A stretch of 39,720 bases of DNA from a virus. Lineage: Duplodnaviria > Heunggongvirae > Uroviricota > Caudoviricetes. Each line of letters begins with the position of its first letter. Positions within the stretch are counted from its first letter, which is position 1. The position numbers were made by a program, and so were the translations under genes. Below the pieces are notes generated by a model. The model was not told the origin of the DNA, did no database searches, and saw only the letters and a list, made by a program, of their open reading frames with translations. Below are positions 1,826 to 4,958 of the stretch, one piece after another. The stretch lies in the IMG/VR virus record IMGVR_UViG_2706794676_000012; one strand, written 5' to 3'.

Positions 1826-2119
1826 ATGGACAATCATGTAACGACGAGAAATCGAAAAATGATTGAAAATGCGGAAATCTATAATGATTATTTTTCCGAT
1901 TATTCAGATGCCTGCAAATACAGTTCGAGTGCGGGAGAGTTCATATGCTTCAACTTTTTTATTAAATCTTATGTTTTTCCTCCACAGCAAGAAGATGGAG
2001 GTGTGCCACCTCCTGAAATCACTTTGCACCGTATAGCCTCCGTCTCAATGATGGAGCAACAGGCTAATGAGCTGTATAGCATTCTGGGAACGATTCTACA
2101 AAAGCGTGAATCGGACTAA
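1826..2119 (+). CDS. Hypothetical protein (97 aa), AT-rich cargo gene divergent from com-mom
   Basis: ATG at 1826 preceded by AAGAGG; AT-rich codon usage distinct from phage core; no recognisable domain. Confidence 0.5.
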   Translation: MDNHVTTRNRKMIENAEIYNDYFSDYSDACKYSSSAGEFICFNFFIKSYVFPPQQEDGGVPPPEITLHRIASVSMMEQQANELYSILGTILQKRESD

Positions 2120-2253
2120 TGATACCGGTTCATTTGCCTGCCCGGATGGGGAAGCAGGATTGACTGCTCCATAAGCAGCTATATTTCTGAATACGAAATA
2201 CTATCCAGCGATTACATATGGCTGGATAGCGGCAAAGATGTTTTCATTAGTGT

Positions 2254-2288
2254 CAAACCGGCAGAGGACACCACCGGTTTGTATTGTT
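2254..2288 (+). terminator. Hairpin between convergent genes (weak terminator candidate)
   Basis: CAAACCGG (2254-2261) / CCGGTTTG (2274-2281) 8-bp stem with 12-nt loop, followed by TATTGTT. Confidence 0.3.
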
Positions 2289-2541
2289 ACATCATGGTAC
2301 TGTCAGTTCCGGGCTGAGCCGGGTCTGGTTGCTCTGGCTGCGCGTCGGTTTTCGGCTCATTATCAGCATCACTGGCCGCAACTGCTGGCCCAATAAGTTT
2401 TGCCAGCACTTCATCAACGTAAGTGTCGATTTGTGCCTCAAAATCCTTGCGGACCTGCGCTTTCAGCAACTTATTTACTTCACCGGAATACAGTGCCTGT
2501 TTTACCAGGTCTTCAGTGACGGTGCCTTTAATTTCTGGCAT
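2287..2541 (-). CDS. Hypothetical acidic protein (84 aa)
   Basis: ATG at 2541 preceded by strong SD AGGAGG; acidic C-terminal tail (ASDADNEPKTDAQPEQPDPAQP). Confidence 0.6.
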   Translation of the reverse strand: MPEIKGTVTEDLVKQALYSGEVNKLLKAQVRKDFEAQIDTYVDEVLAKLIGPAVAASDADNEPKTDAQPEQPDPAQPGTDSTMM

Positions 2542-2576
2542 GTATATCCTCCTTATGCGGGAATAAAGCCCTGCAA

Positions 2577-2759
2577 TCAGGGCTGGGTCGGGTCTTTTGG
2601 GAGCGGAGTTACCTGCGCTGTTTTACTGAGTTTTTCAGCTGCTGCGTCCTCAATTTTGCGGCGAACATAATTTCTGATGGCCTTATAACCACCACTCACC
2701 AGATATAACGCACATACTGCCGTGCAGAAATACAATAAAATAAGCTGTAAAAATGTCAT
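2577..2759 (-). CDS. Small membrane protein (60 aa), one predicted TM helix
   Basis: MTFLQLILLYFCTAVCALYLVSGGYKAIRNYVRRK...; ATG at 2759 preceded by GGGAGGG. The ORF-track start at 2771 is a TTG. Confidence 0.55.
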   Translation of the reverse strand: MTFLQLILLYFCTAVCALYLVSGGYKAIRNYVRRKIEDAAAEKLSKTAQVTPLPKDPTQP

Positions 2760-2774
2760 TATCCCTCCCAATTA

Positions 2775-2815
2775 TTGACATGGTGTTGACACCGGTAATA
2801 TCTGTTAGGTAAAAA
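2775..2815 (+). promoter_or_regulatory. Candidate sigma70-like promoter on plus strand
   Basis: Two TTGACA hexamers (2775-2780, 2786-2791) followed by TAATAT (2796-2801) / TAAAAA (2810-2815); points into an ORF-free stretch ending at an intrinsic terminator. Confidence 0.35.
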
Positions 2816-2819
2816 GGTG

Positions 2820-2897
2820 CACTGCATTTTTTGCTTTGGATATAACGATCTTTTTGCCGCCGGTTTCTTGTTTTCCCTTACCGGCGGCATTTTTTTA
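2820..2897 (+). ncRNA. Candidate small RNA (~80 nt) antisense to the esterase / membrane-protein intergenic region
   Basis: Bounded by the promoter-like element at 2775-2815 and the intrinsic terminator at 2856-2897; no plausible ORF on this strand. Confidence 0.3.
2856..2897 (+). terminator. Rho-independent terminator (plus strand only)
   Basis: GCCGCCGGT (2856-2864) / ACCGGCGGC (2880-2888) 9-bp GC-rich stem, 15-nt loop, then ATTTTTTTAT. On the minus strand it is followed by an A-run, so it is not a terminator for the esterase transcript. Confidence 0.65.
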
Positions 2898-2903
2898 TCC
2901 TGC

Positions 2904-4958
2904 TTACGCGTTATTCACTTCCACCACGATACTGTCAATCAGTACCGGGTAAGTCGCATTTTTAGTGATATCGGTCACGCGCAACTTGTCTGCCGTAAAC
3001 GTGCCGACCGGAGACTGCGACAGCATGAATGGTGTCCCGTCCTTACCATCAATGACCGGCGTCACCTCAATACTGTTGTTACCGGCAAAACGGAAGCCCA
3101 GCGTATGCCATTCGTTATTAAATGCGCCGAATGACCCCAGCTTCGTGTTCTGCGCCGTGTTTCCTTTGTGATACATCACGTTAAGGTCTGTGGCATCGCT
3201 CTGTACGTAGAACGATGCCAGCAGGTTATGACCGGCATTTCCTTCCAGAGTAACCCCTTGCGGCAGGGCAGAAACCGGCCAGTACAGCGCCAGTGCGTAC
3301 TGATTAGCCGTAAGCGCGCCATCGAGTTTAAAACGACAACTGACAAGACCACCTTTACCCAGCAGGTCCGCACCATTACCAGCATCATGCTCAAGGTACC
3401 AGGGGGCTCTTCCTGTTTCCTTGGTCAGTTTCATTGCCTTACCCCCGCTGGCTCCGGCATCATCCACGATTTGAGCCTTGCCACCTCCGGCAGCCCAACC
3501 CTGTGGTGTCAACCGTCCTTCAGACTCAGATGCCCGGTAAGCAAATAGCGTACTCATCGTCGTGGTGTCTGCGGGTGGCGTGGACGGTTTTGATGGTGTA
3601 TCAGGTGACGGCTTCTCATCCGGTGGTGTCACGGTCTGCCCACGCATCAGTTCAGCCGTGCGCCCTGCATGGAGCATAATAGCTGAGGCCAGACGGTCTG
3701 AAATGACGCCCCTGCGTGCCCATGAGCTGAAATGGCTGTCACGCTGTGTCGAAACAAAACTGCCCTGGGTTCGGGATGCTGCACCGTAATACCCGACAGC
3801 CACAATATCCGGGTCTTCCGCCGGAGCATTCGTTGGCGTGCTCTGTCCATTCTCATCCGTCAGGAACGGTACAAAGAAAATTTTCTGTGCTTCCTTGCCT
3901 TTGTAGCCACCGTATACTGCCTCATATTTATCGGTGCCAGCGTTTTTCCAGTAATACGTGGTATCACCGCAAATCCACGGCACCGTGGTGGCATTTCCAC
4001 TCACGCACTGCGCAGCAAGCGGAGCCAGGTCAGTTCTGAACTGCTGAACCATGGCCGTGAATAAACTATTATGCTGCTGGCTTCCTGAGGCAAGGTCTGC
4101 CTCTCCCTGCATCCAGACCACAGCCAGAAGTTTGTTTTTCGGGTTTTTCGCCAGCGCGACTTTGGTGCGGCTTACCAGGTCCTGATACAGAGGTTTACCG
4201 GCCCCCCAGCGTGAAGAATCAGCGGAAGCACCGCTGGCCTCACTGAATGAGCCGTCGGCTCCAGTGGTGAATGCTGACCCGCCACGACAACAGGGCACCA
4301 GAAGTATCCCGGCATTCTGTGGGATATAGGGAAGCAGTTTTTTGGCAATATGCAACCCCTGACCGACAGTCCCGTACTGGCCTTTTGCCAGATCAGCTTT
4401 CGGGTGGTTTATCCCGCTCATATCCTGAACATCATGCAGGCAGTGGTCTGCCGGAATGATGTCGTTGTATGTACACGACGTACCGTTGGGCGTTACCGTA
4501 CTGCGGCGTGCCAGTTGCTTAATGCGTGGGTCCGGGCGGTCAAACGAATCCGGTAACGGCAGCCCCTCGCCGTAGGCCATGCCATTTGACTGACCCGCGA
4601 GAATGACAACAAAGTAATATTCCGGCTCTGAACTGCTGCCATTCGTGCTACCGGAAGGCCCGGCGTTATCCGGTGCATTCCAGTCGGAGGGCGTGAGCGT
4701 TCCGGCCACGTCAGATGTGATTGGAATGATGCCAGTCACGCCTGAACTGGTGATTTCTGCACTGGGATTACCGGATACCGGCATTACCCATAATGGCTCT
4801 TTCGTGCTGAAGCGGATCACGCAGTCTGCGAAGGTGATCCCCCCTTTATTACCCGAAGGGCGGAAAGGGCTTTCAATAAATGCCACCGTGCCACCGGCAA
4901 CCTTGACTGAAAACTCTCCGGGCATGGCGGAGAGCATTTTCCACTTGGAGTCTGACAT
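2904..4958 (-). CDS. SASA-family carbohydrate esterase (sialate O-acetylesterase-like, NanS-p-like) with C-terminal extension
   Basis: 684 aa with YFVVILAGQSNGMAYGEG (GQSN block) and VVWMQGEADL (QGE-D block), typical of the SASA/DUF303 family. Domain order resembles prophage NanS-p esterases of enterohaemorrhagic E. coli. Start could be an internal Met. Confidence 0.7.
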   Translation of the reverse strand: MSDSKWKMLSAMPGEFSVKVAGGTVAFIESPFRPSGNKGGITFADCVIRFSTKEPLWVMPVSGNPSAEITSSGVTGIIPITSDVAGTLTPSDWNAPDNAGPSGSTNGSSSEPEYYFVVILAGQSNGMAYGEGLPLPDSFDRPDPRIKQLARRSTVTPNGTSCTYNDIIPADHCLHDVQDMSGINHPKADLAKGQYGTVGQGLHIAKKLLPYIPQNAGILLVPCCRGGSAFTTGADGSFSEASGASADSSRWGAGKPLYQDLVSRTKVALAKNPKNKLLAVVWMQGEADLASGSQQHNSLFTAMVQQFRTDLAPLAAQCVSGNATTVPWICGDTTYYWKNAGTDKYEAVYGGYKGKEAQKIFFVPFLTDENGQSTPTNAPAEDPDIVAVGYYGAASRTQGSFVSTQRDSHFSSWARRGVISDRLASAIMLHAGRTAELMRGQTVTPPDEKPSPDTPSKPSTPPADTTTMSTLFAYRASESEGRLTPQGWAAGGGKAQIVDDAGASGGKAMKLTKETGRAPWYLEHDAGNGADLLGKGGLVSCRFKLDGALTANQYALALYWPVSALPQGVTLEGNAGHNLLASFYVQSDATDLNVMYHKGNTAQNTKLGSFGAFNNEWHTLGFRFAGNNSIEVTPVIDGKDGTPFMLSQSPVGTFTADKLRVTDITKNATYPVLIDSIVVEVNNA

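Follow-up and report, generated by a model that had tools for sequence, protein, structure and literature searches.

The stretch of DNA considered here (IMG/VR record IMGVR_UViG_2706794676_000012, a Caudoviricetes virus; 39,720 nucleotides [nt], referred to as the window) holds a Mu-like prophage that spans 550 to ~39,210. Between the gin-type recombinase gene and com/mom, this prophage has a cassette that comprises, in order of transcription, genes for a NanS-p-like sialate O-acetylesterase, a 60-amino-acid (aa) DUF1378 protein and a DUF826 protein. The intergenic space between the DUF1378 and esterase genes is 144 nt long and contains a plus-strand hairpin. An earlier note on this DNA had seen in it a candidate antisense RNA beside a small membrane protein. 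We consider it likely that the unit at ~2786-2896 is instead a free-standing small RNA (sRNA) gene, an allele of EcOnc33 from prophage Sp6 of Escherichia coli O157:H7 Sakai, and that its product is most probably a trans-acting, Hfq-dependent RNA.

The unit is homologous to EcOnc33 and lies in the same gene order. Window 2740-2920 (181 nt) aligns with O157 prophages over its full length at 83% identity, and BLAST of the O157 EcOnc33 sequence against the window gives a match at 2822-2848 (96% over 27 nt, E 4e-8) followed by collinear segments up to 2896. Among EcOnc33, PasA, PasC, Esr41 and an RNA of VT2-Sakai, only EcOnc33 matches the body of the window RNA in BLAST comparisons. Tree et al. 2014 (PMC4104026) list the northern probe for EcOnc33, AAATGTCGTTATATCCAAAGCAAAACATGCAGGAC, in their supplementary tables. 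The spacer that separates ECs1527 (esterase) from ECs1528 (DUF1378) contains one exact copy of the probe's reverse complement, opposite in strand to the two genes, and the probe matches both Sakai and 86-24 exactly; the Sakai locus then continues with DUF826, holin and lysozyme genes. The published peak coordinates for EcOnc33 refer to an earlier version of the Sakai genome, with an unconfirmed offset relative to NC_002695.2, and the identification rests on the unambiguous probe match. EcOnc33 and the window unit therefore both sit between a NanS-p-type esterase gene and a DUF1378 gene, on the opposite strand and converging on the esterase, with the same promoter and terminator. They differ in their hosts, EcOnc33 being in a lambdoid prophage and the window unit in a Mu-like transposable prophage. 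They also differ in several details of sequence: the window unit has a terminator loop 6-7 nt shorter and 2 extra nt before the stem, and its RNA begins with GCAC for GUCC. The neighbouring proteins are 65% (DUF1378) and 37% (DUF826) identical to those of Sakai.

Published work on the O157 copy supplies the experimental side of this identification. Table S2 of Tree et al. 2014 Mol Cell (PMC4104026) places EcOnc33 in Sp6 with a predicted rho-independent terminator; its Hfq peak from crosslinking and analysis of cDNA (CRAC) passes in 5 of 5 datasets with an area of 25.6 million, compared with 23.3 million for Esr41, and a band of ~71 nt is seen on northern blots. By analogy with this homologue, the window copy would be expressed as an Hfq-bound RNA of similar size, which fits the plus-strand sRNA of ~80 nt that the earlier note had proposed. 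The same note had allowed for "another regulatory RNA" as a fallback, and this is a better reading than the toxin-antitoxin module it had put first. An unannotated intergenic unit thus has a name and a published experimental link, and one that is among the stronger Hfq-bound peaks of O157. EsrF, considered as an alias of this RNA, is unrelated to it and sits at the 3' end of glnA.

The anatomy of the unit is that of a complete sRNA gene (Table 1). The terminator stem pairs GCCGCCGGUU (2856-2865) with AACCGGCGGC (2879-2888), after which come an A and U7 (2890-2896), and the U tail stops 7 nt short of the esterase stop codon, which lies on the minus strand. For the 83-nt RNA the folding energy is -25.6 kcal/mol, compared with -14.2 +/- 2.8 kcal/mol for shuffled sequences (z = -4.1; none of 200 shuffles as good), and across the sRNAs aligned from this position one pair of the stem changes from G-C to A-U with both sides altered. 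Read on the minus strand, the hairpin has AAAAAGAUCG after it; the terminator therefore stops plus-strand transcription only and would let esterase transcripts pass into DUF1378. A strong terminator of this one-sided kind had been noted earlier at 2856-2897, and the present coordinates differ from it by a single position. Homologous variants differ by insertions and deletions of 1, 2 and 5-7 nt that keep no reading frame; the unit is therefore non-coding, in agreement with the earlier view that the interval between promoter and terminator lacks coding capacity.

The promoter had to be reassigned. An 11-bp tandem duplication, TTGACATGGTG followed by TTGACACCGG... (also given as TTGACATGGTG / TTGACACCGGT, window 2775-2791), creates two -35-like boxes. 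The earlier note had combined the distal TTGACA (2775-2780) with a TAATAT box at 2796-2801, a pairing that leaves a spacer of only 15 nt. In homologues this -10 box reads TAATAC or TAATGC, and the distal box reads TTGGCA, TTGATA or TCGACA. Furthermore, strain ST866 has a single copy of the 11-bp repeat, in which the -35 to -10 spacing of the other pairing is kept; the earlier pairing cannot work there, because its one TTGACA would lie 3-4 nt from the TAATAT box. The distal box is thus probably not the working -35, the -10 box proposed with it is probably wrong, and comparison of the homologous sequences favours a promoter made of the proximal TTGACA, a spacer of 17-18 nt and (G)TAAAA(A). The proximal box is the one that does not vary (ten EcOnc33-type variants were compared for it). 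With the corrected promoter the 5' end would fall at ~2819-2823 and the RNA would be ~75 nt long. The predicted RNA consists of a small 5' hairpin, a U-rich single-stranded linker AUAACGAUCUUUUU, the terminator hairpin and the U7 tail, and this fold is common to five variants.

Table 1. Features of the sRNA unit, its cassette and the neighbouring genes in the window.
Feature	Position	Strand	Remarks
Distal TTGACA	2775-2780	+	One copy of the 11-bp tandem duplication
-35 TTGACA	2786-2791	+	Identical in every EcOnc33-type variant and in the aligned PasA, PasC, Esr41 and VT2-Sakai sRNA genes
-10 region GTAAAAA	2809-2815	+	TTAAAAA in homologues; 17-18 nt past the -35
Predicted sRNA, EcOnc33-type	2821-2896	+	~75 nt; 5' end inferred to within ~3 nt
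Intrinsic terminator	2856-2896	+	10-bp G+C-rich stem, 13-nt loop, then A and U7
NanS-p-like sialate O-acetylesterase	2904-4958	-	684 aa; SASA and DUF6645 domains; first cassette gene
DUF1378	2577-2759	-	60 aa; Pfam PF07125, E 9e-32; PHROG 494 (unknown function)
DUF826	2287-2541	-	84 aa, acidic C-terminus; Pfam PF05696, E 6e-16; PHROG 311 (unknown function)
97-aa open reading frame	1826-2119	+	RefSeq: 86 aa from ATG at 1859
com	1369-1614	-	Prophage right end; 81-aa open reading frame from TTG start
mom	678-1610	-	Prophage right end
gin-type recombinase	5044-5616

The unit is widespread and is kept intact with its neighbours. The region was matched in 363 of 5426 complete E. coli genomes, with at least 99% identity in 21 and 83% in most others; a sample of the 83%-identity genomes consisted chiefly of O157:H7 and other Shiga-toxin (Stx) strains. 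In IMG/VR, 66 viral contigs matched a 20-nt pattern for the RNA core and 47 of them also had the terminator, in seven sequence variants. The unit was intact at every one of these 47 loci, DUF1378 was always present, and the esterase gene lay beside the RNA in 46 (in the exception the contig ends at the RNA). About 14 of the loci had com, mom or gin and are thus Mu-like, ~32 had holin, lysozyme or Q and are thus lambdoid, and one had both. Identity of the unit among lambdoid and Mu-like prophages is 83-89%, and its conservation is about that of the flanking coding DNA. Strain CI5, whose diverged Mu-like lineage shows 86% identity here, has kept the terminator as well as the promoter and RNA core. 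A scan of genome contigs with a degenerate 20-nt pattern gave, among the matches listed, none with a terminator; these look like chance matches, and the scan is uninformative beyond E. coli. Against phage genomes megablast found no match. The more sensitive blastn found the 3' end of the esterase gene in many Stx phages, and two Stx phages with an inserted Mu-like phage. The usual site of the cassette is the lambdoid late region, ahead of the holin gene, and from such a setting the esterase, sRNA, DUF1378 and DUF826 cassette has moved into the Mu-like prophage between gin and com/mom. Since a cassette of Shiga-toxin-type lambdoid prophages is also found in Mu-like prophages, spread of Hfq-dependent regulatory RNAs is possible from one phage type to another, unrelated one.

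Other sRNAs are known from the same position. PasA (743499 to 743415) and PasC (1290909 to 1290832), both on the minus strand of enteropathogenic E. coli E2348/69, lie directly downstream of esterases of the same family, on the opposite strand. Both are Hfq-dependent and confirmed by northern blotting, and RNA interaction by ligation and sequencing (RIL-seq) found partners for them in the core as well as the accessory genome; the partners of PasA include the 3' ends of neighbouring esterase mRNAs (Pearl Mizrahi et al. 2021, PMC8550237). In a 2026 preprint, Zhu, Shabalina and Storz describe the order esterase, PasA, holin, lysozyme as typical. The window RNA occupies the position of PasA and PasC, immediately downstream of a sialate esterase gene and converging on it, and shares with these 79-85-nt RNAs the TTGACA -35, an A-rich -10, a U tail and a terminator stem that is related to theirs. 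Around the promoter, the window unit and PasA also have in common a doubled TTGA.A box and CTGT..G ahead of the -10. By contrast, blastn between PasA or PasC and the window RNA finds nothing beyond chance words in body or seed, so that the window RNA falls short of the similarity over >75% of the query by which the preprint assigns membership. The PasA and PasC loci also differ in having a holin gene or an insertion sequence (IS) element next, with no DUF1378 or DUF826. In the extracted PasA locus of E2348/69, positions 2765-2885 (minus strand) hold a second promoter and PasC-like terminator unit downstream of PasA, ending at the esterase stop codon; this probably accounts for the 236-nt "minor" form of PasA reported by Pearl Mizrahi et al.

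Esr41 (RF02676) offers a similar comparison. It resembles the window RNA in size and layout, and it has documented Hfq-dependent regulation of genes elsewhere in the genome. The Rfam alignment of the two runs end to end but is weak, with 22.2 bits for the window RNA against a gathering threshold of 102 and 108.6 bits for genuine Esr41, and the Esr41 core UUUUCUCCAUGGG is missing from the window RNA. Esr41 itself is in SpLE1, with no adjoining esterase or DUF1378 gene; a decayed esterase 3' end suspected downstream of it was dropped, as no similarity was found. VT2-Sakai and PhiR12_4 have another RNA gene in the esterase-DUF1378 spacer, with an Esr41-like body, UUUUCUCCAU.GG.UAUU.CC.CCGCCAGC, placed in VT2-Sakai exactly as the sRNA is in the window. 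The VT2-Sakai gene (NC_000902; 2865-2941 of the extracted locus, minus strand) is unannotated and has its own promoter (TTGACA, 17 nt, TTAAAA) and terminator; at 30.9 bits its Rfam score stays under the threshold of 102, and standard annotation would therefore pass it over. When eleven such units are aligned, they show an invariant TTGACA, a conserved spacer length, an A-rich -10 and a terminator stem of the form GCC(R)GC...GC(Y)GGC around bodies that are unrelated. This is suggestive of common descent of the promoter-terminator scaffold, and only suggestive because promoters and terminators are generic signals.

How the window RNA might work can be pictured from these parts. A sigma-70 promoter (TTGACA, 17-18 nt, (G)TAAAA(A)) would start transcription near 2821, most likely in the lysogen, and the intrinsic terminator would end the RNA at 2896, just short of the esterase gene, which it would also shield from antisense transcription. 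The U-rich stretch AUCUUUUU before the hairpin and the U7 tail would together form the usual Hfq-binding module, by which the RNA would be held on Hfq, leaving the conserved 5' part CUGCAU-UUUUGCUUUGGAU free to base-pair with other mRNAs or sRNAs. That the RNA acts in trans is proposed by analogy with Esr41 and PasA, and the set of variants marks this 5' core for a seed search.

Several points weigh against an EcOnc33-type, trans-acting sRNA gene. Expression and Hfq crosslinking are known from the O157 copy alone, and EcOnc33 is confined to supplementary tables, with a main-text mention in no paper of the library searched. Covariance searching of Rfam returned no family at threshold for either the region or the whole window, the best hit being Esr41 at the score given above (E 0.76). 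The outer 5' stem of the O157 RNA is weakened in the window allele, owing to the different first bases. In addition, the -10 region lacks the final T of the consensus, and a promoter scan did not flag the promoter. This last silence carries no weight, since it follows from the rules of the simple consensus scan: the promoter was missed because of that missing T, and the terminator was likewise missed because its loop is 13 nt and the scan takes 3-8. The remaining objection is that the unit may act purely in cis, and this is taken up below with the other accounts of the locus.

One such account, unlikely as a whole, is that the sRNA regulates its own cassette, by pairing its 5' part with the ribosome-binding region of the esterase mRNA and, as an antisense RNA of the esterase-DUF1378 spacer, limiting leak-through into DUF1378 and DUF826 in the lysogen, and that EcOnc33, Esr41-like RNAs and PasA/PasC are interchangeable "seed alleles" of one scaffold which travels with the esterase between lambdoid and Mu-like phages. 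Pairing of sRNA 2823-2855 (+) with esterase mRNA 4933-4968 (-), a region from the weak Shine-Dalgarno sequence to codon 9, is predicted at -21.9 kcal/mol, compared with -13.4 +/- 2.6 kcal/mol for shuffled sequences (1 of 500 as good). In CI5 the pairing is weaker (-18.3, not significant), and O157, in which the N-terminus of the esterase differs, has none. As six candidate regions were tested, the corrected significance is marginal, and as the pairing is significant in the window allele only, we keep it as a lead and not as a finding. The single-stranded 5' part of the sRNA paired no better than shuffles with the ribosome-binding regions of DUF1378, DUF826, com and the 97-aa open reading frame. 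What keeps the idea of self-regulation of the cassette alive is the presence of esterase mRNA 3' ends among the PasA partners.

Those same PasA partners also speak for a purely cis role, a reading that we judge rather unlikely. Here the convergent promoter and the antisense RNA would reduce the read-through that reaches DUF1378, DUF826 and, in lambdoid phages, the holin gene from the esterase gene, by polymerase collision or by RNase III cutting of the duplex, with no targets in trans. In all prophages examined the unit keeps its place between the esterase gene and those downstream of it, and RNA polymerase bound at the sRNA promoter would sit over the ribosome-binding region of DUF1378. On the other side stand the strong Hfq crosslinking of EcOnc33, comparable to that of Esr41 and typical of trans-acting sRNAs, the spread of PasA partners across the core genome and the distant targets of Esr41, as well as a 5' part of the RNA that is conserved well past what a promoter alone needs. 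The swapping of RNA bodies at this position is uninformative here, because a cis-antisense RNA is complementary to its partner by definition; the cis reading is therefore retained as a rival in its own right. Roles in cis and in trans are moreover not mutually exclusive.

The layout resembling a type I toxin-antitoxin system, which the earlier note had compared with hok/sok, now appears improbable. On this account DUF1378 would be a membrane toxin and the plus-strand RNA its antisense antitoxin, as Sok is on the hok mRNA leader. There is a real likeness, in that DUF1378, 60 aa long with one hydrophobic helix at its N-terminus, is a small single-pass membrane protein whose gene lies beside a short RNA with an intrinsic terminator on the opposite strand. 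Any read-through transcript would carry an esterase-DUF1378 spacer to which this RNA is perfectly complementary. RNA and DUF1378 gene are also adjacent at all 47 IMG/VR loci, but these were picked via the RNA, and adjacency is trivial with only ~60 nt between the two. The description of the RNA as antisense to the DUF1378 leader stands in part: it is antisense to the spacer, 60-140 nt upstream of the start codon in a read-through transcript, but from ~2821 onwards it is clear of the Shine-Dalgarno sequence and start codon (2759-2769), and the ~50-nt gap between is its own promoter. Nor is there complementarity in trans, the single-stranded part of the RNA and the DUF1378 ribosome-binding region giving -9.2 kcal/mol against -12.6 +/- 3.0 kcal/mol for shuffled sequences.

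The gene itself differs from hok as well. A consensus scan of 2760-2904 found no promoter-like minus-strand site upstream of DUF1378, which has no overlapping leader reading frame and sits within an operon in the Mu-like and lambdoid contexts examined, in the latter a late/lysis operon just before the holin gene. The protein matches only PF07125 and a PHROG of unknown function; Pfam links it to no type I toxin family, and PADLOC returned no hit. A literature search gave no report of DUF1378 toxicity and no functional data on the protein. Furthermore, tblastn found no DUF1378 or DUF826 at the PasA, PasC or Esr41 loci, so those sRNAs do not need the protein, and DUF1378 of Stx phages is paired with an unrelated RNA body. 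Esr41 and PasA, for their part, are documented to interact, in an Hfq-dependent manner, with RNAs transcribed elsewhere in the genome. The toxin-antitoxin label, tempting as it is, lacks support and is removed from this locus.

Least probable of all is that the sRNA gene is a silent passenger which came with the esterase cassette and is neither expressed nor used in the Mu-like prophage. Window-type copies are for the most part nearly identical and thus say little about selection, but promoter hexamers, RNA core and terminator stem are intact in diverged Mu-like lineages (CI5 and the variants L140 and L183).

The protein-coding genes around the EcOnc33-type unit fall into two groups. The window esterase is, as a protein, 76% identical to Sakai ECs1527 and 55-66% identical to the esterases of VT2-Sakai and E2348/69, and DUF1378 and DUF826 form a fixed pair that travels with it. 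DUF1378 has a hydrophobic N-terminus followed by a basic stretch and is preceded by the Shine-Dalgarno sequence GGGAGGG (2763-2769); in Stx and lambdoid phages, homologues with 52-65% identity are encoded between nanS-p and the holin gene. DUF826 is the last gene of the cassette and comes after DUF1378 in the Mu-like and lambdoid loci examined. The 97-aa open reading frame, in contrast, is an orphan, an unrelated insert outside the sRNA cassette. It occupies a patch of low G+C (35-40%) that separates DUF826 from com, and its surroundings have 35-43% G+C in 300-nt windows; it has no family match in Pfam, PHROG or PADLOC, and its relatives comprise only 14 near-identical protein clusters, the named ones from E. 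coli or Shigella; strain CI5 has a different small minus-strand gene at this site. None of the three small proteins could be given a function from PADLOC or PHROG. The earlier note had counted three small genes between the esterase and com/mom, and all three are present and annotated in RefSeq. Its 84-aa acidic protein with a strong Shine-Dalgarno sequence is DUF826, with GGAGGA upstream. The note had called the three unrelated, which holds for the 97-aa insert and not for DUF1378 and DUF826. In the gap at 2160-2290, where the 97-aa frame and DUF826 converge, there are several hairpins, such as CTATCCAGC...GCTGGATAG at ~2201-2229 and AAACCGG...CCGGTTT at ~2265-2290, which probably end transcription of the two converging genes.

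Some observations concern the prophage as a whole. Its right end was set at 550, the start of homology to other lysogens. Three TTTGATAC repeats lie at 567, 589 and 624, mirrored by GTATCAAA at 39,044, 39,096 and 39,191. Both flanks carry IS66-family sequence (window 1-549 and ~39,215-39,720), with a C-terminal fragment of TnpC at 1-459 and a TnpB-like reading frame on the minus strand at ~39.2-39.6 kb, so that the Mu-like phage seems to have transposed into an IS66 element. RefSeq flags com (5771-5970 of the extracted locus) as frameshifted in NZ_AP022815, a genome 100% identical to the window over the compared part, 1600-3000; because the window holds an 81-aa com frame from a TTG start, the flag may reflect a start-codon annotation problem rather than a real frameshift. 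In the Mu-like prophage of E. coli CI5 (NZ_CP011018), a DNA cytosine methyltransferase gene follows com in the place of mom (881-2087 of the extracted locus), and the com-adjacent region looks like a swap site for DNA-modification genes.

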